From contig OZ237737.1 in NCBI GenBank assembly GCA_965178125.1, forward strand, positions 1,426,001-1,490,000: a stretch of 64,000 bases of DNA, written 5' to 3'. Shown in pieces: positions 1 to 64,000 of the stretch. A program made the position numbers and the translations under genes. The stretch comes from Bilabrum cf. latius. Taxonomy: Eukaryota. The notes beneath the pieces were generated by a model that was not told where the DNA came from, did no database searches, and saw only the letters and a list, made by a program, of their open reading frames with translations. Numbering within the stretch: position 1 is the first letter of the stretch; every line of letters starts with the position of its first letter.

Positions 1-1
1 C

Positions 2-3000
2 ACAAGTGGGAATTAGTCTGGCGACCGAGTCGGCCCGGGGTTTCGAATCGGATCGAGCGCCCGCAAGCCTGAGTACCTTCTTTCGGCAAGCATGCAGCTG
101 AAATCGAAGGCAGCTGGGGATGCTCGAAGTGCACTTCAGAAATTCCTCGGTGGAAAGCACCACAAAGGTGCTGCCAGACCGGCTGGAGCTAGCAAGTCTG
201 CACGGGCCCCAGATGCAGCAGCAGTACCATCAGTGTAGTCGTTCTTTGACCGAGGAGAGCGTGAGGCCGTAGAGCGCCTCTGGAAGAAGCAGAAGAAGGA
301 GATCATGGGCAAGCAAGAGGCAAAGATACTTGGAGCGCAGTACTCTACCGACATGCAAGCGCAGACCGGGCTGGACATCGCACGAATCGCAAGAATGCAG
401 GCCCTCGCGCAGCAAAGGGACGCAGCTGAGTCTACATGGATGGCCTTGCGAGGTCGCGGAGGTGGACACCGACGAGCAAGCCCTCGTGCTGCTAGCTACA
501 ACGCGAAAGGTTTCTCAGCGCTGTTGGCTGCCTCAAGTGCAGCCAGCGGCAGGATTCCTGGCGCCTTGCTCAGGCTCCAAGCCAGACGTGAGCAAGTTGA
601 TCGGAGTGCTCTCCTGGGCACTGAGCTGCGCAAGAGACTCTTGCAGTATTTTCATGAACGAGCTGCATGGCTTCCTCCAATTGTAGATGCTCGTAGATAG
701 AAGATTCGCAGAGACAAAGCCAACGACATCAGCCTTGTTGCAGATCGCGTATCTTTGCCATTGCTACCAATGCATCGCCTTCAGATGGTCCTTCTTCGTG
801 CTGGAGTGCGCACATCATCCTCTGAGCTTCGCATGGTCGTTGAGGACAGTGGTTTAGATCCGTCTTGGCTCGATGGTCCGAGCGGTAGTGTATCCAGCTC
901 ACGTTTCTCGAGGGCATCAAATTTGGCAAGGAGTCCCAGGGGCGGCGGTGAGCCCGACGAGCTGGCTGGGAGATCGATGGACCCCATTGAAAAGGCCGAA
1001 CTGGATACCATTCGATCCAGGGGATGGTATGCTAAAAAAGAGGCTAGGCTATCGGAAGAAGTAGCTCACAGCTCCCATGGGTCGGATCAGCAGCAGCTAG
1101 TCGGGATGCTAACTGCTAGCATGATGTTGTTGGTCGCCTCCAGGGCAAAGCACCTACGCTCTCGATTGGACAGAGCTCTTATGTCGGAAGCCCAGTTCGT
1201 TTGCGCCTGCCAGCACATAGGAGTCCATGGTTTGGTTGACGTTGACCGATAGAAGCGGCGAGAGCGTGCTCGGTAGAACTTCAGGAATGCGATGAAGAGG
1301 GTCCGTCTGCTGCTTGGAAACATTGATGCGCTTTCAAACTTGCTGGATAGATCGCCGCCCCCGCCCGACGCTGAGGTATCTTGCTGGCGCCTGGTCTTGT
1401 CCATCATGTTGTAGAGGTGCTATGCTGGAATGGCGTGCCTGTTTGACCCGGCAGTAGTCCGCCGACTTGGTCAGTCCGTCCCTTCGTTATGCAAGCGCTC
1501 CGAGTCAGCGAACCCGGCCGGGTTTTACCGCCACGAACGAAGAGCTCAGGACGTGACTGGCGTCGGTATAGTTCCGATGTCGGCTGTTCTCATTTGGCTG
1601 CGACACGCCAAACTGCAAAGCGTGAGTTCTTCCAGCGGGTCAAGGGTATGGACACGAGAGAATGTCGTCAGGCAGGCGAAGCATATCATGTCTGCTCGCT
1701 TTGGCGATCCTGGGCAGGCGCACTAGCCTGGCGGGCCAGGAGCGAGACCCACTGGCAGTGGCAGACCGACGCTCCGATTCGAAGTGGAGCTTGGCGGATT
1801 CGGGTTAGACATGTCAACTTCATTCGTTCCTTTCTCAGTTTTCCGCCACTTGATTGTGCGTCTGATCACAGATGAGTACGTGAAAGACCATGGATAGCGG
1901 GAACGCTTCCTGTTTCACGGTCGAGGACCTGTACCGCAGCCAATGAAGTGCTTGCTCGTATCGCTGCCGTGCCCTCCACTGTCTATGGTGCTCTGCGCCC
2001 GAGCAGCCCTTCTAAAGCAATTGTCAGATGTGCAGCACGGCGTGGAGGCCGACGGTCTTGAGTCGTATCCGAGGGACGGCCAAGTGGAGGAGGACGAGGC
2101 ACTGCTTGAAGCGACAACCCATGCAGAGGAAGTTTTGTATCGCACCGAAATTCGAAGCGTTGAGGTCGCTGATGGGCAACTAGACTCGCGCGCAGAAGAT
2201 ACAGCTCCACTGGACTGGACGGATGCTGAAGATACGACGTCGCGACGCAAACGGCGTCGGTAGCTGCAGCGGACCATTAAAGCTAGGCGGGCATCGTAGC
2301 AGCTGGAAAGGCTGCAGGCACGCGAATCTGCGATGAAACTAAACCAAGAGCAAAAAAACGTGTTGACTGGTATGGGGCCGAGAGCAGTCCTGCGTTGGTA
2401 CAAGAGATGGCTTGAGCAGGACTGGCCGTCATCTCCCGCGCTGCGAGACTGCCTGCACTCCCTCGGAGCGGACCTAGGGTCGGAGGTGTTCAAGAGGACG
2501 ATTGACACGCGAGTGGTTGTAGACAAGTTGCCAGGAGGCGGGGCCTCTGCAGTGAGCTCAACCGCGCACGGACGCACCGGCTCTGCTTCTCAGTTTGCTC
2601 AGCTCGGCGAGGACCAAGGGGACGGAACCGTGATCGTTCGGGTCCCAGATTGCGTGGCTATTGCAAAGCAACTGCCACAGACGAACCTAAAGGCGGCTTT
2701 CTTGCCAGCTACGGCATGTTTTGTGGGGAACGACGGGCTCAGTGTGCTTCGTCGCGGTCTTTTGGAGCGCAGGCCACCAACACCCCGCAAAGCGCCCGGG
2801 AGAACTCTCTACAGCAGAACACAAGCCCACATCACCACCGCACGGCGAGTTGAAGCGCACTCTGCATCATCACCGGCGGCACCAGCCGTCCTTCGAGACG
2901 ACGGCACGAAGCTAGAGGATCCAAGGGCAATGACTGCGAAGCAGAAGAGGAAGCACCTCCTTGATACCATCCGCAACCCTTCCAAACGAACGAAAGCTCT

Positions 3001-6000
3001 GTAGGCCACCGAGACTGCAACGGCTCTATCGGACCGAAGTGCGCGTGGAATGGGCTCTACTGATAGCCTTGCATCGCCTTTTGCTGGAACCGGCTCAGGT
3101 GGAGGACTGCCCCCTAGCATCTTCCGCAGTGGATCTTAGTCGCGCTCTTCTGCTGGAGTAGGCCCTGGTACACCTTCTCAATTTAAGCGAGGCGTGACAT
3201 TTAGAGCCCGCAGTGGGATTCATACGCTGCTGCAGGAGGCCAAAGAAGAGGAAGAATCTCGCTTGGCGCGAATGGTGTCTGCTGACAGCTCGACTGCGCA
3301 TGAGCGAAATAACGCGTCCCAAAAGAGCAGCAACTCCCTTCTTATCAGACCTCCTAGTGCAAGCAAACGTCTGGGGTCCTCTACCCCGAGGAGGCCCGGT
3401 AGAAAGCTGGCGCGCGCATCAGGGCATTCAGTGCTGCGCAAACGAATCGACAGGATTGCATCGACGAAGCAGCAGACAGCAGGGATGCGCGCACCGCAGT
3501 CTTCGTCGCAGTACCTCACACAATCGGACTCGCAGGCATCGGCATTCAATAGCGGTGATTCAGATCGTGTTGAGCCTGAAAAGTAGCTTGATGGACCCGT
3601 TGGGGAACCAGTCAAGCCCAGGGTTGTTCCCATTCCACCTACCCACCTTAACGGCATATCTCCATTCGCGAACCAAGTCCGTCGAATTGCGATGCGTCTA
3701 CGGACATCCTTCGTCGTCGTGGTCCCTCGTCGGTTTCAGGACGCAGAGAGGCAGGTGCTGAGCGCGTACCGGGGCTCCAGGGGCATCGATGCGGCGGAGT
3801 TGGTTCTGCAAGGCCCCAACAATGAGTCACAGCAAAGCGGTGGTCGTAGGTTGCGATCGATGCTGCTAGACAGAGACATCGAAGCCCTTGATGCAATTGC
3901 TGATGAATTCGTGTTGAAGGGACCGTCTAGGGAGTAGAGGGTCAATCGGCAGCTGGAGGTCGGCCGCAGTCGACGCGTGAGCATCACTAGCCTCGTATCG
4001 CCTACCAAGTCGCGAGCACTGCGACGCGCACTGGGTACTGGGACCGGGCCGGTTTTCCAAACGCCCAAGGGTAGTGCAGATGGAGACGATGCCAGGTCAT
4101 TCGGTGGTTCTTCTAGCCGTCCCCCGAGTCCTTCCAGTACATAGTCCAGGCCCGCGTCCCCCCTCTCGGATGGCTCATCATCAGACTCATCTGTTGCAGC
4201 ACGCAAGCGCCGCCTGCAGACGTCAACTGGCGACAATTCTGCTGACGAGTCAATCTCCGTCGCAGACCGCGTGATGCAGCAGCTTGGCAGAGCTGCCGCT
4301 ATGAGCCCTGCAAAGCGGCTCGGAAGACGACGCAGCCGACTGGTACGGCAGCGATCGGTGAAGATGATGGAGGTGCCTGGGCAGTCCAAGGCGCAGCGCC
4401 GCGCCTCCATCTCGGCCTAGTCGCTGAGGAATCCCCTGCGAACTTCGACCTTTGCAAACTCTAGACGGCCAGCTTCGATGGAACACCGTCGATCATCGTT
4501 GCCCGACGAGCACGAACGGCCTGGTCACTTGCCGGCCGTATCGTTTGGTGTCAGAGCTAGGAACGTGATGGTGGCTCGAAGGGCTTCGATTCTTGAGGCG
4601 GCTGCTGCCCAGTCCAGAGCTGATTCCCTAAGAGAGCAGACGGCTGGGTCGTCGCCGGGGCCCGTGCCTGGCGACCCGACTCGCAGCACAGCCCGGCAGC
4701 ACAAATATGGCACGCCTGCCCTTCCACCTCCCCAGCTAGCCATGCTTAGTTTTGATGCGCCGCCTGCAGTCACGGTGCTTAGGCCAGACAGCCCAGTGGC
4801 AGGCGGCAAGATGACGATTCCTCGATTGCGTACGTTTAGAGGTGCAAGCATGCTTGCAGCCATGGAGCTCGATAGCCAAGTCAAGAAGGAGTTCTCTGCC
4901 AGCGCGGAGTCTTTTGAGCAGTAGAGGAAGCAGTCGGTCTCGGCAGCGTTGCGGCACGGTGACATCAGCCTCCTCCGCATCAGGAATTCCCAGCAGACGG
5001 CTCAGTCGAAGATCAAGCAACAGTGGGCCTGGCTGTTCCGTGGTATGCTACCAGCTTGGCGAATTAACGAAGGAGGTGACTCATTCTCTGCGAAAGCCTT
5101 ACAGACTCGCCTCGCGCATATCCGAGCAAAGGACGTGATACCCGCTGAAGCAATTCACTCGCGAGCTTCGGCTGCATCTGTTGCGAATGCACGCGCGTCA
5201 TAGGCCGGTCCTGGTTTCTTTCCGTCAGCGAGCGTCGACTATGCTGGTGGGATTGACCCGATTGAAGGGCCCGTGCGTGAGGTGGCCATGCAAGGCAACG
5301 CTCAGCGAGCCAGCCCAAGCAGAGGTTCTGATATGATGTCGTCGAGTGGCTCTGCCACCGGTAGAGCACGGAGCGACATATCCTGGGGCAAGCTGGCGCG
5401 CGAGGCTGTGCGTGCGTTACCAGGGAATGCCGTTGCGGCCCAGGTGGCACGAGTTGCTTAGCAATGGAATCGTGCTGGCCGCCCTTCGAGCTCGCACTCG
5501 AGACACTCGCATTTATCGCGCGGGAGCGCGGCCCGCGAAGCCATACGAATCACCAGAAGGTAGATGGTGAGTACAGCGCAGGAGGACTTCAAGAAGGGTG
5601 AGGCAGCGGCGCTCCAGGCCGTCCTGCAGAGATCCAGAGCCGTCAATCGAGCAGCCGGGGGCGGCTCGTCTCTGGCTGGCATGCAAGGCGCAATCCCAGC
5701 ATTAACCGTCGATGCTCCAAAATCTGCCATTGACCCTGACGAAGCTGAAGTTGCGACTCGAGCAAGGTCTGTCAGTATTCTAGGGGCTGCAGATGGCAGT
5801 GCCCACAGCGACAAGGACGAGCAGTCCGAGTCGGTGCCCGTCGTCTACGCTGACCGCGCGGAGGTACGAGCCCTGCGCACCAGGCCGATTGACCAGCTCC
5901 AAGTGCGCGAGGCGATCCGATTGCGAGACAATGGACAAAAATAGCGTAGGTTTGGGCACTCTAACGGAGAGGCTTCGCCAACTGGCATGTTCACGCCGAG

Positions 6001-6829
6001 CTCTGCGACGTCCAGCCCGCTACGCGCATCCCGAAGGCTGATGCAGCCGAGTCGCGCTTCGAACGAGGTGGCCGGCACCGAGGCAAGTTCTAGGCGAGAT
6101 TAGGGCGAGTTACAGGGAGCGGGATCTGTCAAGTACCATGATACTGTATCGTTCCATTCCCAGTCCAACGGCTCGGCCACAGAGCCGATCCATCCCCTTC
6201 TTGCGGCAATGAGCAAGAGCAAGAGCATACCAAAGAGCAGCCTAGGGCTCTAGCGAGAGCAGGAAGTGCGGCGAGAAATCGGTAGTGTCACAAGGGACTT
6301 ACCGGTGCGTGGCAATGCGGAACGAGAGAATAGGAAAGTGCAGCCGCGGGAGAGTAGACCTACTACTACTGGGATGGACGCAGCGCCCGCCTCACTGCCA
6401 AAGTGGCCACCGCGTGGATCGTTCGATCCTGGCCGCTCTCCCTCTCGGGGGGTTGCATCGCCAGTAACGAGGCGCAGCATTGCGGTGCAGAGAGCCGAAG
6501 CGCAGGCCGAGGAGGCCAGACTTTTCTTGGGGATGGCACCACGGATGGCACCACGCCTGGAAGCAGGGCATCTGGGTGGTACGCAGTCGGGCGGATTTGC
6601 GCCGGCTTTCCTATCGCCAAAAGCTGACAGCCAAGTGAAAAATCTCGCTCAAGCCCCCGGAGTGCTTCTTCGCAGTTCCAAAGGACCTGGAACGGCCGTG
6701 AAAGGCCTTCGCCCGCCGCCTGGATTGGGATCGGCGGCTCAGGCAGAGGCACCTGACGACGATGACCTGGACACGCTGCTCGCGGAGGCAGGGCAACTTC
6801 GCGCAGCGATGGATGATTCAAGCGTTTGA
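2..6829 (+). CDS. Large hypothetical, Ser/Arg/Ala-rich, largely disordered protein (~2,250 aa). First ATG at 92; the frame is open to the window edge, so it may be 5'-truncated
   Basis: ORF fragments starting at 305, 755, 1430, 1943, 2333, 3194, 3692, 4478, 4949, 5273, 5564 and 6266 are all in the same frame. Reading the gaps by hand shows only in-frame TAG (about 22) and no TAA/TGA until TGA at 6827-6829. Confidence 0.8.
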
Positions 6830-6956
6830 GACGCACGTAGGCTACTCGGCTTGGTATACCCCAGGCTCGTTTGGACCCTCTTCGGAGCACTTTTCTTATC
6901 CGGATAGAATACGTGTCCCCACTTCAACGGTCATTCTTCGGCCTGTTTTGATCACA

Positions 6957-8401
6957 ATGGCAGCGGCAAGCAAGGAAATGGTTCGTGTTGGACTCATGGG
7001 CACAGCTGGTATCGCAACCAAGAACTTTTTTGCCGTGTTGGCTTCGGAATCGTGTCAATTCCTAGTGAGATCTTTGCGCTTCATCTCCAATTCTCTGTAT
7101 TTAAACAGTGAGGCTCTGCTTAAGCTTCAGTGGCTGAATATGAAAAAATGTTATCGCAGGGAGTTGCCAGTAGGAACTTAGGACGAGCCAAAGAATGGGC
7201 AGCCCAGCACGCGAGCCAAGCAGTTGCAGAAGGCTACCCAATCGAAGCTGACAAGATCCGCTGCTACGGGAGCTACGACGACTTGCTAGCAGACAGTGAC
7301 ATTGATGTAGTTTACTGCCCGCTTCCAACTGCGCTGCACGACGAGTGGGCCGTCAAGGTTGCCGAAGCAGGCAAGGGGTTGCTCGTCGAGAAGCCAGTGG
7401 CGCTGAGTGGTCCGTCGTGGGAACGCATCTTTGCGGAGTTTCGGAAGCGGTGCCTTCCCATCATGGACGGAGTCATGTTCATGCACCATGAGCGCCTTGG
7501 GGAACTGAAGGCCACCATGGAGGCCGCTCAGGCCGACGGTGGTCTAGACAGCGGCGCAACGCGAGTATCCAGCGGCTTCTCCTTCCCAGCCGACGACGAA
7601 TGGCTAGCCACCAACATAAGGACCGACCCCTCCCTCGACGCCCTGGGTGCTCTTGGCGATCTCGGGTGGTACCAGGCCCGCTTCGCCCTATGGGCGTTTG
7701 GATGGGACCCGCCGGCCAGGGTCCGAGCGGTGTGCATGCGGCACGTAGAGCGCGGCAGCAGCGGCGGGGACGAGGCGTCTGGCGCTTCCGCTGCGAGTGG
7801 TGGGGCAGGGTCTGGTTCAGATGCATCCAGGCCTTGGATAGTGACAGCTGGCTCCCTTCCCGACTCTGGCGCGGTACCCACCGATTTGTCCTGCTCCCTC
7901 GAGTGGTCGGATGGCAGAGCAGCCACCTTCGACTGCAGCTTCCACCACGTGTTCAGGCAGTGGACGGAGGTGGCGGGGAAGGCCGGGTCTGTGACCATGG
8001 ACGATTTTGTGATTGCCCGCGGGCCTGCGGGGGTGGATCTCACAGTGCGGCGGGAGGCGTCCCCTGTCAAAGACCACCGGGAAGTCGAGGCCGAGACGGT
8101 GACCACCACGGCGGGCGCGGGCTGCATCCAGGAGGCGCGTATGTTCGACGCGATGGCTGGGCTGGTGCGGGCTTGTCGGCTCTCCAGGGACGTAGCAGAT
8201 GGTAAGGAGGTCCCTGACGCGGACTGGCCGGCAGCGTTCTGGGCGGAGGCAAGCCTGGCGACGCAGCAGGTGATGGATGCCGCCATGGTCTCAATGCGGG
8301 CTGGAGGGGCGCCTCAGGATCTCTCTGGGATGAAGCGGCCGACGAGTCCATCGGAAGTGGCAGGCAGCTGGTCTTGGCTGATGGGACCTAAGCAGGCATG
8401 A
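6957..8401 (+). CDS. Gfo/Idh/MocA-family NAD(P)-dependent oxidoreductase (2 exons: 6957-7064, 7160-8401)
   Basis: Rossmann start VRVGLMGTAGIA spliced to GVASR. Motifs YGSYDDLLADSDIDVVYCPLPTALH, LLVEKP, MDGVMFMHH and GALGDLGWY. Ends TGA. No internal TAG. Confidence 0.93.
7065..7159 (+). other. Spliceosomal intron (95 nt, GTGAG...CGCAG)
   Basis: AT-rich segment. Removal joins CQFL to GVASR and restores the reading frame of the oxidoreductase. Confidence 0.88.
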
Positions 8402-8848
8402 TCTCGACCGACGCTTGCCTGGTGGGCTATTCGCGGATAGATCTATTTCCACGACAGGTCAAACCGGAATGCGGCGCGGTTCCGGTTCCGCGAGAGACTC
8501 TCTCGCCGACACTGACACTTTGCAAGGGATTCAGCAAATACAACCTAAGTATACCTACAGTTATCCAGATAAATTATTATCAGTCACTGACGCATAGCTG
8601 TTCTAGGAGTTGAACGTGAGGCAGATTTCGTTTTTGGATTTCAATCCATTCGACTTTGCAAATGCACAAGTCGTACCTCAAGTCAAGTTCCATGTGCTAG
8701 ATAACAGTTGCTGATGATGTGTATTGATCAGCTCTGTGCCGGGTGTTGACTCGCTGGATACTAGTAGGCTCAGCAGGGATCGCCGCACCGCCGCATCGCA
8801 TCGTCCAGACATGGCTTTCCGAACTATCGCAGCTGCACTTTCACAACA

Positions 8849-9841
8849 ATGGCAGCAGTTGCGGCTTCTGCTGCAGTATTGCCGAGTGCCTCTCGCACAT
8901 CCTCCGCAAAGGAACAGCTCGAATCGTACCCTGTTGATCAGGTGTCTGATTTCCCTGCTCTTGAAGAAACGCTTGGCCTGGCGTTTGCAAAGTACCCCAT
9001 ACTCAAATTTATCTTTCAAGGTATCAAAAACGACTCGGAACGAGCGGAAGCGGCAGGCTGGACTCTCGTTCAAGACGCTCAAAACGCTTTCAAATCTGCA
9101 CGCGTGTACACAGACCCAGCAGACCCAGAGAAGAAAGCTGCGTTTGTATGTGTTGGTCAGTACCCTGGAGAGGGAGGCAAAAAGCAGGCCTCAATATGCA
9201 GCATGCTCTGCGGTTCGATGCTTTCATTCCCGTTCGCATACGGGATAGCGGCAACGATGCGTGGCATTGAGGTGGAGGAGTACCACGAAGCTGGCATACA
9301 AGAAATATGGGGTGGAGAAAAGAACATGTTCTACCTTGGTTTGATTGGCACACACCCCAGATGGCAAGGAAAGGGCGTCGGCACCCGTGCTATGCGTAGT
9401 GTGTTACGAGAATTCCAAGACACAGTGCCGGCTGGAGAGGAATGCGTGGTGACATTGATCACGCACCTTGAGCGAAACGTCGGGTGGTACAGCCGGCTGG
9501 GATTCAAAGTAGTTCGCAGGGACGTATTCAAGGAACCGAGCGGGGAGGGCGATGACGCCTTTAGCGGGATCACAGCGTGGTTCATGGAGCAGCGCTTCAC
9601 TACTGCAGCAAGCGACACCGCTGGCAGCGAAACCAGAGGTGGAAGAACTACCGCCATCGCTAAGGGTGATGACACGAGTGCTAGCGGGGGAAGCTTTGCT
9701 GGGGTCACCACGGGGGTCGCAAGCGAAGTGGTCTCGGAGCGTGGTGATAGAGGGAGAGGGGAGGCGCCTCAAGCACCCGTTGCCGCGGACGAGATGGGCG
9801 CTGGGCCTGGAGCTGCAGCAACGGGCCGAAAACCTGAATAA
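8849..9841 (+). CDS. GNAT-family acetyltransferase with low-complexity C-terminal tail
   Basis: Acetyl-CoA motif A FYLGLIGTHPRWQGKGVGT and motif B NVGWYSRLGF. Start context cacaacaATGG resembles that of the 6957 gene. Ends TAA. Confidence 0.88.
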   Translation: MAAVAASAAVLPSASRTSSAKEQLESYPVDQVSDFPALEETLGLAFAKYPILKFIFQGIKNDSERAEAAGWTLVQDAQNAFKSARVYTDPADPEKKAAFVCVGQYPGEGGKKQASICSMLCGSMLSFPFAYGIAATMRGIEVEEYHEAGIQEIWGGEKNMFYLGLIGTHPRWQGKGVGTRAMRSVLREFQDTVPAGEECVVTLITHLERNVGWYSRLGFKVVRRDVFKEPSGEGDDAFSGITAWFMEQRFTTAASDTAGSETRGGRTTAIAKGDDTSASGGSFAGVTTGVASEVVSERGDRGRGEAPQAPVAADEMGAGPGAAATGRKPE

Positions 9842-9904: not shown

Positions 9905-11611
9905 TCACGTAAAGTACGTCCATAGGGGCATGCTAAGTGGCCTCCAAGGCGACTCCGCAACCCTGGCCAGCCCCGGTGCCCTCCCAGCCTTGTCCTCCTT
10001 AGAGGCCGCTGCTGCATGCGCCACGAAATCCCCTTCAAACCACCGCACCATCCACGATGGGGAGCTTGGCCAGCTGTTTAGCAGACAGGGCGACACGGCT
10101 GCAACCTTCTGTCTGAACTTCCGACGCCGTAGGTGATACTGGAGGATGCCCTGCTCGCCCGGTAACCCGCTCGCGCGATCCACATCGTTCCAGGCGGCCT
10201 GCAGCATCCGCCGAATCGTCGAGCCCTCCCCTCCTCTCGCCAGTAGCACGCCCCCATTCCTGGCTTTTCCGGCATGCCGAGGCTCCTCCAGCGCCGCAGC
10301 CAGGTCAAACCCAGGCTGCTTTGGCGAGAGATTGCGGGATAGCGGTTGGCCCCGCCACAGCCTCGCGCCCCAGTCGACAGATGCCCGGCGCGCAGCCTCC
10401 ATAGCAGACGGTTGATAGTCATAATTGCTGTCAGCATATCCTGCCATCAAGTTGGACTGGTGCTAGGCGGCCGCTTCTGGAATGATGCGCGACACCACGT
10501 CCAGGTCTACATTGGTGCTGAAGGCGTCCGCGTCCACCCAGAGGACCCAGTCGTAGGCGCAGCTCAAGGCGTGCAGCATGACCAGCTTGGCCCAGTGCGG
10601 CTTGCGAGGGTGCACTGCACGAGCTCTGCGCACCGCCTCCCAGCCCAGCCCATGGGGCAGGTCCCACTCGCGCCACGACTCACTCCCGAACACGTGCCTC
10701 CCCAGCAGCACATCGCACTGCCACCTCCTGCAGTACCGCTCCCATGTGGAGACGGCGAGTCGGGAGGTGGAGTCCACCATGGAATTGTTGCCCTCCCAAT
10801 GCGTGACCACGGCGAGGGTGGGCCTATGACCCGCCCGGCCCGGGTGAGCTAGCCCGGTGTTCCGATGGCGTGGCTGGCCACCTTGAAGGTGAGCATGCGG
10901 ACCAAGGTGCAGATGCGGTTTCTCCCCTGACAGAAACCAGTGGCATTCACTGGCACCTCTACGCGCAGCTGAGTCGTTCACGGCACTGGCAGTTCTGCTT
11001 GGTTCCGCTGGGAGTGGCACCGACAGGTGGGCACTGGAGCTGGCAGCGCTGGTCGCAGCGCTCGTGCTCGCCCATGCACCGGCCTGCCACCAGGCCGGGG
11101 GTGGCCGTAATAGCATCCCTCCTCCCGCGCCGCAGCCAGGACGGATGAGTCTGCCTATGATCGATATTCGAAACACGCTGCCAACTGCAATCATCAACCA
11201 TACGACCACCAAACATAATCTGAGTGCAGATGCGATCGTGCCACACAAACTTCGTTCGTTTGCCCGTAAGGACGGCTTCCGACGCACTGGGGTTCTTAGA
11301 CCGTCAATTGTTTCATTTCGCTTAGCTGGCGTTACAGTGGAAGCATGCTTTCCCTTGCTTGGTCGATCTCTGCACAACAAATGCCTCGCATCGATCACAA
11401 GCCAGGCAACTGCTAATCCAAACCGGATAAATGACCACAGCTGGTGCATCCACGTACTCCCACCGCGACTGCTGAAACAGAAAGTTGGGCATGCAAAGAC
11501 TTGCGGGGCAATTTGTGCCGAATGCAATAAAATATGGCCGAAAGAACCGAGCACAAACGCCGACACACGAGCATAGTAGGCTACAGGACCACCACAGCTA
11601 GGCGCATCCAT
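9905..11611 (-). CDS. Membrane-anchored glycosyltransferase, GT34/MNN10-like
   Basis: ORFs 10463-11611 and 9905-10450 are in frame and joined through TAG 10463-10465. N-terminal hydrophobic helices, HWAKLVML, and YDWVLWVDADA (DxD motif). Ends TGA. Exact start and introns uncertain. Confidence 0.7.
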
Positions 11612-45400: not shown

Positions 45401-45528
45401 TGGTCAGCTGCTGAGGCAGACTTGGACACCAATAGCAGAATTGCGAGGGCGCACGCGAACCTGCGTGTCACGGCCCGAGCATATCCGATCGAGAGTGGCC
45501 GTGCACCGAGGTGCCCACGGTTTGTCAT
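24457..45528 (-). CDS. Giant (~7,000 aa) cadherin-containing nine-pass membrane protein (Nonagonal-like): signal peptide, LamG domains, Cys-rich repeat, lectin-like module, cadherin repeats, PAN/apple, many IPT/TIG domains, Cys-rich repeats, 9 TM helices, cytoplasmic tail
   Basis: 21 minus-strand ORF fragments from 43858 to 24457 share one frame. Those inspected end in TAG except the last (TGA 24457-24459). Motifs: FDGLVDDFRIWSQARSEQEI (LamG); CGDGRRSAQEECDDG; cadherin Ca-binding motifs DTNDP, DLNDAP, DRNDPP, DMNEMP, DPDED, IDFE and LDFE; IPT motifs TxGG..I.G.NFG; nine hydrophobic segments between about 26860 and 25450. Not every gap codon was checked. Confidence 0.87.
44856..44951 (-). other. 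Spliceosomal intron (96 nt, in frame, GTGAG...CGCAG)
   Basis: AT-rich segment. Removal gives the canonical LamG motif FDG/LVDDFRIW. Confidence 0.82.
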
Positions 45529-52700: not shown

Positions 52701-55497
52701 AACCGCCCACTGCAAATAGTGTCGCTTCAGAGCATACCCGAATTGCGTCCTGTAATGACCAGCTCTACTTCTTGACGGTGCACGGAGCTGGAAAATGGCA
52801 TCGGCGGAGAGAGCATCGGATTGGGTCGAGCGCCGGAATAGCATCCCTGGAATAGATGCTGTCTGCACGCCCATTGGCGTCAGGTGCGGCAGGAGACGCG
52901 GATCCGCTGTCCTCATCTTCGTTGCGGGATGCTTTGTCTGCGCTACCTATGGAGGTCCAATCGTCAGAGTCGGTCTAACTCTGCGCGAGTTTAACGTCTT
53001 TCAGGCTCTCCTTGGACTCGTCACCAAGCGCCGATGACTCTTGGGCACCCCTGCCGCTGTGTTCTCCAGCTGCGTCTGCACTGTTCACAGCAATGGCAGA
53101 CAGGTCTAATTCAAATTCGATAGCACCCTCTTGAGAGCTGGGATCAGGATCGCTCGTACCTTGCGCATCGGCAGCGCCAGCACCAGCCGCAGCTGCAGCA
53201 ATCTCAGCCAGATCCAAGGAGAATTCAGGAATGCCATCGTCTCCAATTGTACCCTTGGAGTGATGAGGTGACGGCACATCGCCATGGCTGCTTGGAGACC
53301 CTGTAGACTCGCCAGCGCGGCTAGAAGCCCCCGGCAAGCTCACATCCTTGCACGATGCCAGTACTCTATCCGAACCCCCACAAGCTACATTCAAAGCCGA
53401 GCTGACGTGTACAAGACTAGCCTGACGCACAGGAACAGCAGTACTACCGATGCCTTCTACCATTCGAGTAACTGGGCGATCCCCAGGTGCGGGATCTGAG
53501 CCCGCTCCTCCCCCCGATCCTGCGTGGGCTGCACTTGGTCTGCACAAGGTCTCCATGGTTTCGGACAAGCCTTTCCCTGCCACCTCGTTGTAGTCAGACA
53601 ATGCTTGCATCAGCAAGAATAGGCACTCTAGACATACGCAACGCGCAACTGGCGGCGTGAAGGCGCCGGCAAGCATCGACCACAACATTTGAAGCATAGC
53701 ACCTCCATGTGAGGTGGCAATGCAAGCCCATGTGGACGCGTCGCCACTGCTCTGGAGCATTTGAAGCAATGTCGAAGCAGCATAGAGTGCGCTCCCTGGT
53801 TCGATGCCTGCATCTATTCCAAAGTCTAAACTAGGACCAGAATCGGTATCAGGAATTGCGATTTCAGGAGCTGGTTCGGGAGGAACAGTAGCCCCGTGCA
53901 GGCGCAGGACAGACGTCCACAGCGCGAGTGACATGGTAACCGGACCGCTGTGCTGCTCGCTGCAGCTCGACGAGCCAAGAGCTCCGTCCTCACTCTGAGA
54001 GGGACTCGCACCCGCACCCGCACCCGCACCCGCACCCGCACCCGCACCCGCACCCGCACCCGCACCCGCACCCGCACCCGCACCCGCACCCGCACCCGCA
54101 CCTGTGCCTGTGTCTGCACCCACGATCCCAGCAACACCTAAAACCCGGGCTGCCTGTGCCAGGCCACCAGGACTCAGACCCGCCGTGCCGAGCGCGAGCA
54201 CGATTGCCATCCCCTCTCTGCCGAACGCTGCTGGATCGAGTGGCTGCCCAATGCTACCTGGCTCCACCTCACTGTGTCGACTAGGCGCGCCGTCCGCATC
54301 AGCCTCTTCGTAGTCTTCGTCTACGTCGCTGTCGTCATCGTCGTCATCTCCACCGCCCGCTGCCAATCCGAGAATCCGTCTCCAATCCGACAGAGAGGCG
54401 CGAGAAGCATCCATGCCCTTCGCTACCCAGCTGCAGAATCTCGAGCACGCCTCGTCGATACCTAGCTGTAACTTTGCCACTGGGCTGCTACCATCTGCTT
54501 TCAACCATTCCTTGGCTGCACTCAGCTGCCTCAGGGCACTGAACCTGCTTGCCATCAGCAGCATCGCTGCACACTGTGGGCCCCCAACGGAGGACGTCTC
54601 GGGGGCTACAGACAGCAATCCGGCAATTGCATGCAAAGGGCGACGTGCATCGTCAGGAAATCGATCGCTAGCTATTGGCTGGAGCCTCATGATGTCACTG
54701 GATCTGTCCCAAATGCACCCGACGACCGTCTTGCGATCAGTCCCCAGCCCAGTCGGAGGACAGCTCGTCTGCATCACAGCAGGAGCAGCAAGCTCTTGAG
54801 CTGCCAAACTATCGCCTCGGGAGCAAACCGATGCAGCAAGTGTGCCGCTCCGCTCCGCAATGGATTGTGATTCTTCCCCTCGAGCTGCTGTTCGGAGATG
54901 CAGCAGCCTCTTCAGCATGCCAGACTCTCTGGGCTCCAAGGCCTTCAAATCCTCGATCGGGGAGTCATTCCAACGTCGAGTTTGACAGTAGGTCTAACCC
55001 GCCAAGCAAAGGCAAGAAATGCCACGAGCAGACTCGGCCGCCTCGCGAGAGAGCAAAGCGCACCGGTGGATAGATCGCGTGTACTCCGAGGCGGCTCTGA
55101 TCCACTGGCTCTCAGGCAATGCGTCAGTAGGCTCCTACCCAATTTTCAAAACTGCTGTAGCAGATATACAGCCTGCGATGTCCACAGCTCGTAAAAGACT
55201 GCCAACTCGGCTGGTCGTTGTTGCAACTGGAGCAAGGCTGGCACTTGTCCTGGTGCTGAGACTCAGTGAAGCTGAAACGTCTTCTGATAGTACAACCTGT
55301 GTATCTGGCTCCAAATCTGGGCTAAGCTTATTGTGTGGGGCCGGCTTGGTGGCATCAGCAGGCATCGAGCTCGTTTGCAGCAAGGGATCGAATCCATCTG
55401 GCAAATCCCAGGATACCTATCTGGTCTTCGAGTGATAGTAGTACGTTTTCCCAGTCTTGGGATCTGTGGTCTGCTTCCACTTCCCTTTCTTGGGCAT
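49728..55497 (-). CDS. Large hypothetical protein with an N-terminal WW domain; unresolved frame change near 51240-51300
   Basis: ATG 55497 gives MPKKGKWKQTTDPKTGKTYYYHSKTR*VSWDLP (WW). The frame is open except for TAG down to TGA at 51244. A second frame is open except for TAG from about 51290 to TAA 49728-49730. Probably one gene with an intron or an indel. Confidence 0.65.
54007..54102. repeat. Perfect hexanucleotide microsatellite (CGCACC)16 encoding a poly(Gly-Ala) tract on the minus strand
   Basis: Directly visible. Translates as GAGAGA... in ORF 52975-54948. Confidence 0.97.
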
Positions 55498-55633
55498 CCC
55501 GAGATATGCTAAGGACGGCCGTGCGCTCGATCATCGCAGGTTCCGCAAGTTGCAGCTTGCCCCCGAATGCCAAACGTCGCCCGCACACACCGTCAGAATC
55601 ATTTCGAAGTGGATGGGGATGCTTTAATTCAAT
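55498..55633. promoter_or_regulatory. 136-bp bidirectional promoter region between the WW-protein gene and MCM9
   Basis: Head-to-head ATGs at 55497 (-) and 55634 (+). Confidence 0.55.
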
Positions 55634-58600
55634 ATGCAGCATGATTCGGGAGACGATCCACTCGCGCAAGAGCTGCTTGCGATTGTGCGAGTGCTATCAA
55701 AATTGAAATACAGGCGACGATTAATTGCCATTCTGCGGGACGACCGGGACCCCGACACCAAGCACTACGGATTCCCCATCGAGTAAGCTACTTATCCCAT
55801 GGCCTACACGTGGCAGGTTCTGTGCACTGTGCTGATTTCGGGTTGTTTCATGAATCTTGGCGTGGAGCAGTTGCGCAGGTGCTTTCTTTCCAAGCCAGGA
55901 ACAACATTTGTACTACCATTTCCCCCACCGAACTCGCAGCCCTTGTGACATTTTTGAGAGGGCGCCGCAGCTCGCGGCGTCGCTTGCGAGAAGCTCGGAT
56001 ACGGTGCTTGCAAAGCTTGATCACTGCATCGACGAGTGCTAGCGATTGTGGATGCGCAGCCCTTCCATTGCGAGAGTTGACGTCGGGACATGTGAAATTG
56101 ATCCAAGTGAGGACGACCAGCCGGCCCCAACGATGACGTTCAAGCATCACGTCCATGCTCGCCTCGGGCCCATGCCTGCCATTCCAGAGCTGTGTCGGCC
56201 GAACGTGTCCTCCATCCGCGCGACGGACGTCGGGATGTTTCTCCAAGTCACGGGGACCGTCATTCGCACCGGATCCATCCGAATGCTCGAATCTGCTTGC
56301 GAGTTCGAGTGCGCGAAGAAGAGCTGCGGGTTTCGGTTTACGGTGCATGCCGACGTGGAGCAGGACAACACCATGGAGCTGCCCCAGACCTGCCCTTCCC
56401 CGGATGGCAAGTGCAACGGAAGGAAATTTCTTCCCGTGGCGGGCACCAAGCTACAGGAGGACTACCAGGAGGTCAAGATCCAGGAGCAGGCCCAGTCGCT
56501 GGCTGTTGGTAGCATCCCGCGGTCGATCGTGGCGGTGCTTCGCAACGACCTCGTGGATGCCCTTAAGGCGGGCGATGACGTGGTCGTGGCGGGCATGGTG
56601 ACCCGCCGGTGGACCCGCATCAACAAGGGATAGCGATGCGACCTGGAGATTGTGATCAAGGCCAACTACGTGGACGTCACCACAGAGATGAGGGCCGGAG
56701 GCAGCGCGGGGGGTGCGGCTGGTGGGGCATTGGCCGGTGGGGCGGCGGACTTGAGTGCGCTGGGCGCCAGCGAGTCGGGGGGGGCTGCTTCGGAGGAGCT
56801 CCGGCGCGATTTCTAGGACTTCTGGCGGTACTTCAAGGACGAGACTCACTGCCCGCTGAGGGGCAGGGACGTGCTGCTGCGGTCCGTGTGCCCCAGCCTG
56901 CACGGCATGTACCCGGTCAAGCTGGCGCTTGCGCTCACTCTCACCGGTGGGGTGGGGCGGCGTGCCAGGGATGGGACCTAGGTACGTGCAGAGCCGCACA
57001 TGCTCATGGTGGGGGACCCGGGCACCGGCAAGTCCCAGCTCCTCCGCTTCGCGGCGCAGGTGACCCCGAGGGCTGTGCTAACCACCGGCACGGGTACGAC
57101 GTCTGCGGGGCTCACGTGCACTGCAGTGAAGGATTCTGGCGAGTGGCAGCTGGAGGCCGGCGCGCTTGTCCTTGCAGACAGGGGCATTTGCTGCATCGAT
57201 GAGTTTGGAAGCATCAAGGAGCACGACAGGGCTACCATCCACGAGGCCATGGAGCAGCAGACGCTCTCCGTGGCAAAGGCCGGACTGGTGTGCAAGCTGA
57301 ATTCCAGATGCACGATTGTGGCAGCCACCAACTGCAAGGGCGGATACTCTCCTGACGTGGACCTGGTGACCAACACCGCCATCCAGGGGCCGCTGCTCTC
57401 CCGGTTCGACATCGTGATGCTGATGCTTGATGTGCCCGACCCCTCGTGGGACAGGGACGTGTCCTCCTTCCTGCTGCAACAGGCTTGCGGGGAGGATGTG
57501 AGCGCCCCGCCAGCAGATTCGGACGAACCACGAGCGCTAGGTGTGTCCAGCAGCAGCAGTTCGTTCGCCGTATCGAGTACCTCGCCGACAAGCGCAAGAT
57601 CCGGGCGCGGTGGCGCAGGGCAAGGGTCCGATTTCGCGCCGTAGCCAGTCGTGGAGGTGGGCATCGGCGCGGGCGTCGATCAGACACGCGACCCATCGAC
57701 CGGAAGGCGGGTAGAAGACCCACCTGCCAAGCGGCAGCGACACAAGATTCCACAGTCGCAAAGTTCGGGGCAGCGAAACAGAGACAAGGCCAGGTGGTCG
57801 ACCGAGCGGTTCCGAGCGTACTTGCTGTGGTCCAAGGCCGCGTTCTAGCCTCAAGTATCGGAAGGCGCCTCCGACGTCATCGAGGCGTACTATGCCGAGC
57901 AGCGGTAGCTGAGCGCGAGTGGGATGTCTGGTGGGGCGGCCAGAACCACCATCCGACTGCTTGAGAGCCTTCTGCGGCTCACGTAGGCACACGCAAGGAT
58001 GCTTACCAGGCACAACGCGACAATCCAAGACGCGGTCATTGCGGTGCTAGCCATCGATTCGAGCGTGGCGCCCGACGGCGTGGGGCTAGCAGCTGCCTCT
58101 GCGGTGCACAAGGCGTTTCCCGACGACCCTGACCTGGCGTACGAGGAGCAGGAGGAGAGCTTGCTCCAGAGACTCAGGCTGCCCGGTCTGGTTGGCAAGT
58201 GGCGGAAAGAGGACGAGGAGCTTAACGGGGTGAGATCGCCTGGACGCGGTGCTGGTGACCCCAGGGGAAGTGGAGGTGCCGGCGGCATGGGTGGCACCGG
58301 AAGATCCAATGCCGGATCCAGCCAGGGGATCGGCGGGTCTCTTGGTCAGAATACGGACCCGGTGCAAGTTCGTGATGGGGAGCGTGACAGGTACGGGGCA
58401 GCAGGTACTGCAGAGCTGCTGCAGGACTCTGCGTTTGACCTGGGCCTATCCAGCGATCCGCCGGGTGGCCCCGCTCGCGCTTCGTCAGGGTTCTCGCCGG
58501 GCCGTGCCATGGAAGGGGTCAAATTCGATGACACGGATTTCGACCGGATCGGGCTGAAGGGCAGCAGCTCCTCTTCCGCGTCGAGTGCGGGCGACGCAGC

Positions 58601-59678
58601 TGCTAGACAGAAGGCAGCTGCCCGGCCAGAGGCCGCTAGAGGCTAGGCTGGTTTCTACGCGAGGTCCAAGCCGATCGGGGCGCCCCTGCCGAGGTCGGCC
58701 GGTGATACCCGGGCAGGAGCGGGAACGCCAGGATGGGGACCTGGCGCTGCATCTGGACTGGTCGGAGCTGCAGCCGGCTCAAAGAGACCAAGGCCGCAGT
58801 CTGAAGCGGTGCAGCTGCCGACCAGGGCAAGCGACCCGCAGTCTAGCCCATCACACGCGCGTGTGCAGCAGCAGGACCCTCAGGTCGGCACGCCGTCACA
58901 ACGCGGGCAGCCACCAGGCAAGAGGAGGCGCTCCACTCCACGGCAGAGGAGGAGCGGGCTGGACGCCACCAGCGACCCAAGGAGCGCGGGAAGGAACAGT
59001 GCGAGCGCCACCCCAGCCTCTGCTCTGGATCGCGTGCTGAAGCTGGCTGTGGAGGACGGGATGGAGGGGCTGGGGGCACTCGTGGTGGACGACCTCGATC
59101 AAGGGGGCAACCAAAGCCGGGGTGAGACCGGTGCAGCGCGAGAATTTGCACCAAGTGGAGCTGGTGCGCTGCCTAGGAGGGCTCTAGGCATCCGACATGC
59201 TCGAGGGGGCACAGGTCTGGCGGCCGTGCAGAGGTCGATGCTGTTCGGGGGCACGCAGCAATCTTCGATGCTCTCCGACTCAGTAGCAGACCGCAGGCCC
59301 AACCCGGACGCACTCAAGCGATTCGATTCGATTGAAAACAGAGGCAACCAAGGCGACGGCCGCGATGCCGGGGCGAATTACGGGCCACATGTTGGTGCGC
59401 CCACGGCACGCCACAGCAGCGGCATCCAGTCAGATGCCGGCCAACCCGCACCGCAGCACAATTTGGGGTAGGACCCAGGCAGGAAGTCCATCGCAGTTGG
59501 TCTGGGGGTGGGCGAGGGCCCAGTGGGCAGCAGCACATCACTTGACGCTGCTGCCGCGCCTCAGGTTGTGCAGCCACACAATCAGCCGAGAGGTGTGCAG
59601 GACGATCCTGCCACCAGTGGTTACGTAGACGATTTGATGGCGGGTCTGGAAGGCGACCTTGATCTGGAGAACATGTGA
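55634..59678 (+). CDS. MCM9: DNA helicase MCM9 (exons 55634-55782, 55940-59678) with a long disordered C-terminal tail
   Basis: OB/Zn finger region [21 protein letters not shown]; Walker [48 protein letters not shown]; arginine finger [23 protein letters not shown]9-type features are [19 protein letters not shown] and the long tail. 10 in-frame TAG. Ends TGA 59676-59678. Confidence 0.9.
55783..55939 (+). other. Spliceosomal intron (157 nt, GTAAG...CGCAG)
   Basis: Phase-2 join gives HYGFPID/PCDIFE and links the two MCM9 frames. Confidence 0.78.
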
Positions 59679-59834: not shown

Positions 59835-60689
59835 TCAAGATCCCATCCTACCCTTTGCTCGCATGAGGGCCTCCACGTACTCTGTGTAGTCGGTCTTGCG
59901 AAGGTGGTTGCGGTGGTCGTGGTGCTTGAGCTCGTGCACCATCTCGTCGTCTACCTCGAACCGTTCCTGCTGCTCCGTCTGGATCTTGCCCCGCGCCGTG
60001 GAGAACTACCGCAGTTTTTGCACGTGGTCCACCAGGTGCTTCTTGGTCTCCCCGCTGTCGTCGGGGCCAGACCGGCGCACTACCCCCATCCCTTGCAGCA
60101 CCTTCTTCCGGGCCTTTGCCTCCGCAATCCGCATGATGCGGTCCTCCTCGGGCTCTGCAGCGATTTTGGCTCGGATGGACGCTTTTCGTGCCTTCTCTTT
60201 CTCCTCTTCCTCCTCATCCATTACCTCCCAGATGTCTTTGCCTTCCCGAGCCGATCTCTCCTTCACCCGGATAGACTCAGAGAGGGCCGCGCCCTGCGCA
60301 TCACTAGGCACGGGCAACCCTTTCCCGCGTAGCTTTCTGGCTGCTTCCTCCCACTGTCTACGCTATTCCTGCACCACCGGATGATCCCCTGGAGCCGCCT
60401 CCATACCCCCCCTTGCATAGATCGCTTCCGAAGCTGCCCTGCCACCAGGCCGGAGGCCTTTGTGAAACATGCTTCCAAGAGGCACCTTGTCTCCAGCCGG
60501 TGGTCGGCTCTTATCGAAGGTTGCTCTGTCAAGTTGAGATAGCGCGCTGACATGATGCAAAGTCTCTTTCATCCGCTCCTGCTCTTCTCTCAATTCTTCT
60601 TCCGCCTTCATTCTACGTTTTCTTGCTGCTTCTAGCCTAGGATCCTCTATTTTTCTGATCTCATATGCATCTTCGCCTGGAAAGGCCAT
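59835..60689 (-). CDS. Hypothetical charged/coiled-coil protein (284 aa)
   Basis: ORFs 60363-60689 and 60006-60317 are in frame, joined through TAG at 60363 and 60006. Continues to ...HLRKTDYTEYVEALMRAKGRMGS and TGA 59835-59837. Confidence 0.75.
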
Positions 60690-60819: not shown

Positions 60820-63800
60820 ATGCCCCGGAGAACGGGAGGCAAGTCCAAAAAGAGCAGCGGTGAGTGCAGATACAGAACTTTCAAGATTCGTCGCGTGTAC
60901 GCGGGTCTGGCCGTCGCAGTATTGCCTCTGGTCGACGCAGTACATTCGGATCCAACTGAGCAATCCGATATTTGTTTGCCCCATCAAGCGACGCAGGCGT
61001 AAAGGAGCTGGTCGCTTCTGTAAAGAAGCATAAAAAGTTCCGTCAGCTTGCCAGTTACAGCGTGCAGTGCCTGCAGAAGGCAATCAGCCCCCCTACCGTG
61101 AGCATGGAATTGACCGGACCCAAGGGCTTGCGCTGCCACAGGAGAGCCATTCCTGAACATTGCGTCGTAGAATGGCCTCATGGGATATAATTTTTGCTGG
61201 CTGGGATTAAGGGTATCCAGATTGCTCGCGGCTAGCTCCATTTTGAGCATTCAGCCCGGTCTGCGAAGCGGTCGTCAACACCACGTGTTATTGTTTCCCC
61301 TGCCCTATCACGCCTTGAATTCTCTCGTAGAATGGATGGGAACAAGCCCGCAAGGAAGCGTACGAGGGAGGTGCTCTGGATGCCCTGACTGATGTGCTGA
61401 AGCGCCACAAGGGCGATGCGACGATCCTTGCGGCGGCCTCCGGCTGCCTCACGTCGATCGCGAGCGAGCCGCAGTACGCCGGTGATCTCGTCAAGTCCGG
61501 CGCGCTGTCATCCATGATTCAGAGCGTGGAGAAGAACCCGGAAGCCCCCGAGGGCGCCGACGTTGTGAACCTCCTCGAGACGGTGGCGGCGAACAACCCC
61601 GAGGCACTGCTTGGCTTCAACGTGACCGATTCCGTGGTCGGCCTCATGAAGGCGGCCTCGGACAACCCACAGGTGGTGGGCGCCTGCGTGCGAACCCTGG
61701 AGCGGATCAACAAGGTGTCGGGCGGACCCAAGGCGCTGATAGACTCCGGGATCGTGCCGGAGCTGATGGAGCGCATCACCAAGCCGGTCGGTGCAGCGGC
61801 CGGGGAGGAGGCTGCCTTCCAGCAGGAGCTGCTGGAGGCCTCCTTCCGACTGCTGGAGAGGATGGCCCGCGTGCCCGATCATGCTGAGTACATCCGCAAC
61901 GAATGCGATGGCATGCAGTCGCTGTCCTCTGCTCTGGAAGTGCACGCCAAGAACGACAAGGTGTGCAGGACGGGGGGGCGGCTTCTCACCAAGCTGGCCT
62001 CGGGCAACGTGAGCGACCTCATCTCGCGGATGCAGACGACTGAGAAGCCAAAGGAGAGGGAGTTCCTGGCTGGCCTGCTGTCCAACCTGGCCCTCGAGGA
62101 CGAGTCAGCCCAGAAGATCGTGTCCGGCGGCGGCGTCAGCGCGCTGATGGGCTGCTTCGACAGCACCTCCAAGAAGACCGTCAAGGCGGCGTCCAAGGCC
62201 ATCGGCCGCATCGCCGATGACCCCGCGAACATCGATGAGCTGGTGGACAGCGGAGCCGTGGGAGTGCTGGTGAAGACCATGGAGGAGAACAAGGGCGACG
62301 CCGAGGTCTCCGCCTCCGTGGTGCCTACCCTCCTGCGCTTCGCCACCTCCCTGTCCAACGTGGCCAAGATTACGGAGCAGAGGGGCGTCAAGGCCATCCT
62401 GCAGCAGATGGCAGAGCACCCCTAGGATGCCCAGCTGGCAGAGCAGGGCCTCGCTTTCATCGAGAACCTTCCCACCATCGGCTTCAGCACGTCCCTGCTC
62501 GTGGGCGAGGGCGCTGTGCCGGCCACGGTGGCCTGCCTGAAGGCGCACCCCGACAGCCCCACCATCCAGCTGAACGGCGCCCGGTGCCTCGTGTACATGG
62601 CCGACTGCGAGGACCACGTGGACAAGATCATGGCAGAGGACGCGCTCGACCACATCCTGGCCGTGCTGGCCAGCATCACCGAGGGCAAGGGTCGCATCGG
62701 GGGGGGCGCTGGGGCCGCCTCGGGTGCGGGTGCCAGCGGGGCGAGCAAGGGCAGCAAGCGCCGCGGCAAGTCGGCAGCCGCTGCCAGCGCGAAGAAGAAG
62801 GAGAAGAAGCAGCGCGAGCAGCTCGTCTCTACCTTCATGTACCTTCTGACGTCAGTGTCCATGTGCGACGACCACAAGACCTAGCTGCTGAACTCGGGCG
62901 GCGTGGACACTGTGCTGTCTGCCATCGCCCACTTCGCCCGGCACGAGTCCGTGCGCGAGGGCGCCCAGGAGCTCATGCAGGCGGTGGTGGGTGCAGAGGA
63001 GGTCGCAGAGACACTCGCGGCGCTGGGGAGCACCCTGGAGTCGCTGATGAAGAGCAAGAGCGCGAGCGACGCGAAGGCCGCGATCGAGCAGATCGGACGG
63101 TGCAACGCCTTTTCTATCCTGCCCAGCAACGCCGACATCATCGTGCGGTCCGGTGCCAACGCCCCCAAGGGCGAGGTGGCAGGCCTGGGCGTGATCGTGA
63201 AGGCCATGATGGATGTGTCAAAGGCCGGGCACACCATCCCCAAGTAGGAGAGCATCCTCGCCGCGTGCTCCAACTGCCTCTTCGGCATCTCGTCTTGCGT
63301 GGGTGACGACGAGGAGCTCCGGGACATGCTGGGGAACAGCGGGGCCCTCGAGGGCGTCATCAAGGCCATCAAGGCCAACCCCAGGCTCAAGAGCTCCGTG
63401 GCGGCGGGCGTCGAGTTCCTCGACAAGTACGCCACCGTGGGCAATGCCTCCAAGGTCATCCTAGAGACGGGCGGCGTGGAGTCTCTCGTGGCTGCCATGC
63501 GCGCCAACCCGACCGACCCCAAGGTGACTCTCGCGGCCGTGGACACCATGTGCCGGCTCGCCTCAACGGACGAGGGCGCTATCGCTGTGGCCAAGCACGG
63601 CGGCGCCAGGCAGGTCGTCGCCGCCGTGACCTAGAACACGAGCACTCCGGGATTCCGGGAGCCCATGGAGCGCATGCTCAGCCTGCTGCAGCGGGTGGCG
63701 GGCACCAACGAGGGCAGCGACCAGCTGGTTCGCGTCGGCGGCGTGGATGCCGTGATCGCGGCTGCGGATGCCGTGTCGGACTCGGCCCGCGTGGCCCAGT

Positions 63801-64000
63801 CATCGAGCCGCGTGCTCGGCAGGCTGCTCATGGATGAAGACGTGGAGATGGCCGTGGACGACCTGGACGAGATGATGAAGCTCGTGCGCAAGGGCAAGGT
63901 GCCTCCGGTGGACCAGCTGAAGCCCATGCTCAGCCGGATGGGGCACATGGCAAACGTGGGCGACTTTGGCGCCTTCATCAGCAGCAAGGGCGGGGTGGAG
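60820..64000 (+). CDS. Large armadillo-repeat protein, possibly glideosome-associated-connector (GAC)-like; 3'-truncated (exons 60820-60859, 60997-61097, 61331->64000)
   Basis: Repeated ARM signatures (IVSGGGVSALM, LVDSGAVGVLV, GALEGVIKAI, GGVESLVAAM). In-frame TAG at 62423, 62882, 63245 and 63632. Introns 60860-60996 (GTGAG..CGCAG) and 61098-61330 (GTGAG..CGTAG) preserve the frame. Confidence 0.85.

Follow-up and report, generated by a model that had tools for sequence, protein, structure and literature searches.

Does a nuclear genome in which long genes are crowded with in-frame TAG triplets still use UAG as a stop codon and, if not, which amino acid does UAG specify? The question is raised by a 64,000-nucleotide stretch of contig OZ237737.1 (positions 1,426,001 to 1,490,000, forward strand), referred to below in its entirety as the window. 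The initial annotation of this stretch claimed that TAG is a sense codon throughout it, and proposed an independent, possibly undescribed reassignment in what looked like a stramenopile. The analysis presented here points in the same direction and goes further with respect to the amino acid: the window is very probably nuclear DNA of a heterotrophic-type stramenopile, distantly related to Cafeteria, in which glutamine is inserted at UAG, with UAA and UGA remaining as translation stops, an arrangement that we take to correspond to the table 15 type of genetic code.

The argument starts from the distribution of stop codons. When the window, whose G+C content is ∼59%, is scanned from stop to stop under the standard code, its longest frame has 879 codons. 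With TAG treated as a sense codon, frames of 7079, 2551, 2275, 1428, 1274, 1142, and 1021 codons become open; treating TAA as sense leaves the maximum at 879 codons, with no long frame gaining length, and treating TGA as sense gives a maximum of 1025 codons. Codon counts were then made for the bodies of eight genes, 17,061 codons in all, in the gene's own frame as well as in the other two. The own frame contains 117 TAG, 1 TAA, and 6 TGA codons, and all seven TAA and TGA codons are terminal ones, which leaves no internal TAA or TGA. The off-frames contain 124 TAG each, 39 and 46 TAA, and 289 and 437 TGA codons (on average, ∼42 TAA and ∼360 TGA per off-frame); at their combined TAA and TGA rate of 0.0238 per codon, a 7024-codon frame free of both would arise with P of ∼1e-73. 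The frequency of TAG is 0.69% in frame versus 0.73% out of frame. Its share of the combined TAG, CAG, and CAA codons in the eight gene bodies is 16%, and across the genes it accounts for ∼0.7 to 1.2% of codons. The in-frame TAG codons are real and far beyond chance, and these counts support the view that TAG is a sense codon in the nuclear genes of the window, with TAA and TGA as terminators.

Much of what had been reported from the sequence alone was reproduced in this recount. The frames of 7 to 21 kb do lack internal TAA and TGA, the tandem TAG TAG at positions 19591-19596 is present, and the TAG numbers agree with those given before: 22 when counted from position 92 to 6829 (∼22 reported; 23 from position 2), 31 for the gene reported at 15859-23484, 30 for the gene reported at 24457-45528 with more than 20, and 10 for the MCM9 gene. 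The statement that some TAGs fall inside conserved domains also holds, as eight of them lie within the part of MCM9 (its first 749 residues) that aligns to human MCM9 with E = 2e-156. The total had been put at 10 TAG-containing genes out of 12; that most genes carry TAG is right, and the exact numbers are now 11 genes with TAG inside the likely coding part out of 13 likely genes (Table 1).

The amino acid specified by UAG was judged from protein alignments and from the codons of close relatives. The most informative single TAG, at positions 26728-26730 on the reverse strand, lies within the giant protein's membrane module, and its alignment column contains Gln in all 145 aligned homologues (columns of this protein were counted over the rows aligned among 150 hits to its C-terminal module). 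In MCM9, which was aligned with 120 full-length homologues, the TAG at 57984-57986 falls into column 711, occupied by Gln in 41 sequences and by Glu in 79, and by Gln in 34 of the 34 stramenopile-like homologues. A related metagenome contig of 1759 bases (L001; 75% DNA and 87% protein identity over window positions 55935-56718) carries CAA at the window TAG at 56040 and CAG at the one at 56631, and has an in-frame TAG of its own where the window has CAG (56481), so that all three exchanges between the two are between TAG and a glutamine codon. Truncated proteins predicted from other relatives also have Gln at TAG sites: P0139 (85% identity) at the first TAG of MCM9, in an otherwise identical context; P0129 (60%) at the second one (260); and P0247 (95%) and P0248 (82%) at two different TAGs of the giant-protein C terminus. 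In the armadillo-repeat protein, a single homologue match of 31% identity was found, too few for a column test. UAG very probably encodes glutamine, the sole residue that fits both the invariant columns and the near-relative exchanges.

Confirmation of the TAGs in DNA and in transcripts had been named in the initial annotation as a test of the proposal, and both parts can now be answered. The MCM9 stretch is represented, completely or in part, in twelve public sequencing runs, five of which (X8 to X12) contain only small shares of it, and contigs from four runs, assembled sequences rather than raw reads, were compared with window positions 54200-64000. The 62-kb contig of the DNA run X1 shows no difference from the stretch; it does not count as independent support, since the window may have been derived from it. 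Runs X5 and X6 come from a different study than the DNA runs X1 to X4. Their contigs are short, confined to genes, and of very uneven depth (about 7, 60, and 87), and they contain joints flanked by GT..AG ends, from 55782 to 55940 (157 bases skipped), from 60858 to 60996 (137 bases), and from 61097 to 61331 (233 bases), the last one in both runs. Since spliced, gene-wise contigs are what complementary DNA gives, X5 and X6 were read as transcripts. They cover 18 of the 19 in-frame TAGs in positions 54200-64000, and no letter is changed or skipped at any covered TAG; the only uncovered one, at 56814-56816, is one base outside a contig. These contigs retain three TAGs of the WW-domain gene in positions 54994-55419, cover the small gene at 59835-60689 over its whole length, and keep all four coding TAGs of the armadillo-repeat gene in spliced form in two runs. 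Editing to CAG and removal as tiny introns therefore appear very unlikely.

The organism itself was placed using MCM9. The best matches of this protein are two Cafeteria roenbergensis proteins, at 47% and 54% identity; oomycetes, brown algae, and Chrysoparadoxa come next. In a quick maximum-likelihood tree of 37 rows, the window sequence falls into a six-row clade with Cafeteria and three other sequences (Shimodaira-Hasegawa-like approximate likelihood ratio test [SH-aLRT] support of 99), which is nested in a stramenopile clade (SH-aLRT 97). Judging from these comparisons, it is safe to conclude that the organism is a stramenopile whose nearest relative among named sequences would be the bicosoecid Cafeteria, albeit a distant one, in line with the earlier guess. 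An Rfam scan of the window detected no family and no ribosomal RNA.

Several observations weigh against the glutamine code in a stramenopile as set out above, and most of them belong to one or another rival explanation. By the way they are built, stop-to-stop frames close at TGA or TAA and are blind to any UAG that ends a gene. They would accommodate a double meaning of UAG that varies with its position, namely, glutamine inside genes and a stop where a gene truly ends; such position-dependent double meaning has been reported for UAR (UAA and UAG) or UGA in Condylostoma and Blastocrithidia. A TAG does occur 12 codons before the TAA of the gene at 15829-23484 and another 3 codons before the TAA of the frame at 49728-51293. 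However, with TAG making up ∼0.7 to 1.2% of codons, one or two such near-end TAGs among 12 genes are expected by chance, and the 12 complete frames all terminate in TGA (9) or TAA (3). A dual role of UAG is the best of the alternatives and is still unlikely.

The second group of unfavorable observations concerns the amino acid. UAG could instead encode glutamate, leucine, or serine, as it does in some ciliates, a rhizarian, and Scotinosphaera, and not every TAG column favors Gln. Column 342 of the giant protein (26974-26976) is mixed (Glu in 62, Asp in 20, Ser in 15, and Gln in 7 of 128 sequences), column 321 of MCM9 has Glu in 81 of 120 sequences, several TAG columns of MCM9 are variable and not mostly Gln (Val, Glu, or Lys/Arg), and the human MCM9 residues facing TAGs are V, E, R, Q, Q, and E. 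Among the near relatives, P0245 (96% identity) has Ser at a third TAG of the giant protein, P0360 (78%) has Thr at a fourth, and P0174 has Val at a TAG of MCM9 that is located in a poorly conserved stretch. These three mismatches all fall into variable stretches and differ from one another, whereas relatives of at least 78% identity show Gln in five of eight comparisons. Readings of TAG as Glu, Leu, or Ser were rejected on the basis of the two columns with uniform Gln (145 of 145 and 34 of 34) and the three exchanges with L001, to which P0129, P0247, and P0248 add their Gln residues; an amino acid other than glutamine is very improbable.

It could also be supposed that the TAGs are never translated at all, being products of assembly or sequencing error, DNA damage, editing to CAG, tiny introns, or pseudogenes. 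No support for this was found. X5 is labelled “RNA? (probably DNA)” and none of the 12 runs containing the stretch is recorded as RNA, so that the reading of X5 and X6 as transcripts rests on their splice joints and gene-wise depth. Against it stand the X1 contig, the unchanged TAGs in the spliced contigs of another study, and the presence of TAG in the same gene of a different species (L001). Decay would also have yielded TAA, TGA, and frameshifts, none of which was seen in the 17,061 codons, so the argument that had been made earlier against pseudogenization and C-to-T damage is borne out. Untranslated TAGs are very improbable and the least credible of these three alternatives. A UAR = Gln code of the table 6 type was rejected on the lack of internal TAA and of any long frame that gains length with TAA as sense, and reassignment of all three stops, of the Condylostoma or Blastocrithidia type, on the lack of internal TGA. 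Two further unfavorable points concern the reading as a whole: the scan of the window for tRNAs detected no tRNA gene, and the placement of the organism rests on one gene and a quick tree search.

The glutamine reading of UAG extends beyond this one organism. In a metagenome scan for MCM9, which allowed comparison among 80 loci, the in-frame TAG in L001 indicates that the same code is used in at least one other related species; examination of relatives for the same code was another check that had been proposed earlier. Database proteins from close relatives (P0139, P0174, P0245, P0247, P0248, and P0360) are fragments whose start or end coincides with a TAG position: the P0139 prediction ends exactly at the TAG of L001, the P0245 prediction covers exactly the interval between two window TAGs, and the P0174 prediction, whose contig is absent from the 80 loci, ends at the residue before the window TAG 665, a TAG that, to go by this end point, its organism would share. 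The organisms with such TAG-cut predictions are 82 to 96% identical to the one studied here. With fragments from close relatives bounded by TAG, the public annotation of this lineage, made under the standard code, is therefore shattered. The next-closest MCM9 loci (L002, L003, L004, L007, and L079, with 47 to 64% identity) contain no in-frame TAG, which suggests that the code change is limited to a small clade. Three distant metagenome MCM loci of 35 to 45% identity, L016, L018, and L019 (the last over a short piece), have 3, 7, and 1 in-frame TAGs, respectively, that align to assorted residues and could reflect other altered codes or introns. Run X7, from another study and labelled as another organism, contains at low depth a 668-base piece identical to window positions 57662-58329, with the rest of its matches being mostly 22- to 35-base pieces from conserved parts; other samples seem to contain this organism, or a nearly identical one, as a minor component.

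Reading UAG as glutamine would call for a dedicated tRNA-Gln with the anticodon CUA and for an eRF1 that has lost its grip on G and, with it, its affinity for UAG. The anticodon of the decoding tRNA should be CUA because UAA remains a stop, as reasoned for Iotanema in PMC5304391, which proposes tRNA-Gln(CUA) together with an altered eRF1 as the mechanism in that organism; a single mutation separates the CUA anticodon from that of tRNA-Gln(CUG). In the window organism, such a tRNA could most simply have come from a mutated copy of tRNA-Gln(CUG), and the synthetase would have to accept the CUA anticodon. With G+C at ∼59% and TGA as the usual stop, UAG may have been a rare terminator and its capture cheap, although this is conjecture.

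The type of code, with UAG alone reassigned to Gln, is already known from Iotanema and some ciliates; what is new is the stramenopile lineage. The nuclear UAG-only cases listed in PMC11687900 are the rhizarian exLh (Leu), Iotanema (Gln), the green alga Scotinosphaera (Ser), Protocruzia tuzeti (Gln), and phyllopharyngean ciliates. The earlier list, made up of Iotanema, a rhizarian, and some ciliates, was correct in these entries and in the rarity that it stressed, and incomplete in omitting Scotinosphaera and P. tuzeti. Among the closest counterparts is Iotanema spirale (Fornicata; Panek et al. 2017, PMC5304391), described there with UAG = Gln only, UAA and UGA as stops, and a predicted tRNA-Gln(CUA) and altered eRF1, the same mechanism that is proposed here. 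It belongs to Metamonada, an unrelated supergroup, it is known in that paper from a transcriptome only, in contrast to the genomic DNA with long genes in the window, and its main stop is UAA as opposed to TGA here. P. tuzeti and two phyllopharyngean lineages, as described by McGowan et al. 2024 (PMC11687900), likewise separate UAG from UAA and assign it to Gln, whereas other UAG-only ciliates in that account use Leu or Glu, and in one ciliate UAA is Lys and UAG is Glu. In ciliates, which belong to the alveolates, the record of code changes is long; none was found in print for stramenopiles. The exLh and Scotinosphaera codes (PMC11687900) are UAG-only nuclear changes as well, but neither Leu nor Ser fits the invariant Gln column or the exchanges of TAG with CAA and CAG. 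Hexamitin diplomonads, oxymonads, ulvophytes, Amoeboaphelidium, and many ciliates are given as UAR = Gln lineages of the table 6 type (PMC11687900, PMC5304391); in these TAA is sense too, unlike in the window, where it ends three genes and is absent internally against ∼42 expected. Code 15 with TAG = Gln is also described for the crAss-like and Lak phages, which are viral genomes in bacteria, in contrast to the eukaryotic genes with spliceosomal introns analyzed here.

Full-text literature searches, whose coverage leaves out most subscription journals, found no nuclear UAG reassignment in a stramenopile; the stramenopile items that they returned concern mitochondria or plastids. Of the earlier wording “independent, possibly undescribed,” the part that holds is that no stramenopile report was found; “undescribed” is probable for this group and not proven. 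On balance, we lean toward the view that this is the first nuclear code change in stramenopiles, an independent and undescribed assignment of UAG to glutamine in a small clade of Cafeteria-related heterotrophic flagellates that includes at least two species and has a G+C-rich genome preferring TGA.

The genes of the window are real eukaryotic genes, as spliceosomal introns and the MCM9, cadherin and IPT, and POPDC families attest. Three GT..AG introns were identified, at 55783-55939 (157 bases), 60859-60995 (137 bases), and 61098-61330 (233 bases). They sit near the 5' ends of the MCM9 and armadillo-repeat genes, and the long genes otherwise appear intron-free. Only the oxidoreductase and acetyltransferase genes are devoid of coding TAGs. 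The Pfam search found no family for the frames at 2-6829 and 49728-51293 and the small gene at 59835-60689; in MCM9, it recognized the P-loop (E = 3e-71), OB, and lid domains.

Table 1. Likely protein-coding genes of the window, with their TAG codons and terminators
Gene or product	Position	Strand	Features	TAG codons	Terminator
Gene extending beyond the window's 5' end	2..6829	+	2275-codon frame, low-complexity protein	23	TGA
GFO/IDH/MocA-type oxidoreductase	7124..8401	+	Pfam match	None	TGA
GNAT acetyltransferase	8750..9841	+	Pfam match	None coding; frame TAGs 8762 and 8765 upstream of first ATG	TAA
Frame with weak GT34 glycosyltransferase match	9905..11611	-		1 (10463-10465)	TGA
Popeye-domain (POPDC) protein	12300..14321	+	Pfam match	6 in likely coding part; 10 in whole frame from 10893	TGA
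Secreted/membrane protein	15829..23484	+	2551 codons; beta-helix-like tandem repeats, ephrin-receptor-like domain, C-terminal membrane span	31	TAA
Giant adhesion-type membrane protein	24457..45696	-	7079 codons; Pfam LamG, DUF7495, cadherin, IPT/TIG, DUF7630; multi-span C terminus	30	TGA
Acidic protein	46456..49521	+	Weak PH-domain matches	3-4	TGA
521-codon frame	49728..51293	-	50-base overlap with next frame, gene model unsure	6	TAA
WW-domain/SPIN90-like protein	51244..55530	-	Pfam match	10	TGA
MCM9 helicase	55854..59678	+	Pfam match; 1274-codon frame; intron 55783-55939 ahead of exon	10	TGA
Small charged protein	59835..60689	-	284 codons from ATG	2 (60006-60008, 60363-60365)	TGA
Armadillo-repeat protein	60996..64000	+	Pfam match; exon 60996-61097, intron 61098-61330, exon from 61331 off window end	5 in frame: 61328 intronic; 62423, 62882, 63245, 63632 coding	

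Several of these genes have unusual structures. The giant gene is a single exon of ∼7000 codons. Its product contains several cadherin and IPT/TIG domains, and the 1180 residues at the C terminus matched 3216 database relatives; this C-terminal module occurs in thousands of proteins, many of them 3000 to 7800 residues long. The gene at 15829-23484 starts with tandem repeats with a period of 1038 bases (about 15970-19000), the first two copies being 99.6% identical and the third ∼72%. Two of the 31 TAGs of this gene are copies that arose in the 1038-bp tandem duplication (pairs 16663/16696 and 17701/17734). The WW-domain gene includes, at about 53900-54030 on the reverse strand, a Gly-Ala dipeptide run of ∼17 units encoded by a short hexanucleotide repeat. 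Genes of different codon bias also differ in TAG density: the armadillo-repeat gene (61331-63999) has 4 TAGs in 889 codons, with third-position G+C of 0.89 and high contig depth, and the repeat-protein gene at 15829-23484 has 31 TAGs in 2552 codons, with third-position G+C of 0.54.

Changes of the nuclear code are rare, and the separation of UAG from UAA is rarer still, being recorded for a fornicate, a rhizarian, a green alga, and some ciliates in the sources consulted here (PMC11687900, PMC5304391). The stramenopile case would add an independent origin in a major group for which no deviating nuclear code was found in print, and its G+C-rich host genome bears on ideas that link stop codon capture to base composition and stop codon usage. 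Gene callers set to the standard code shatter the genes of this lineage, and annotation, phylogenomic matrices, and metagenome binning that include it need the right codon table; if the glutamine reading is true, the genes predicted for this clade in public collections are broken off at each TAG. Studies of code evolution clearly stand to gain from this lineage; on the same condition, it would provide a new natural system in which to learn, from genomic DNA that is already available, how eRF1 and tRNA-Gln separate UAG from UAA.

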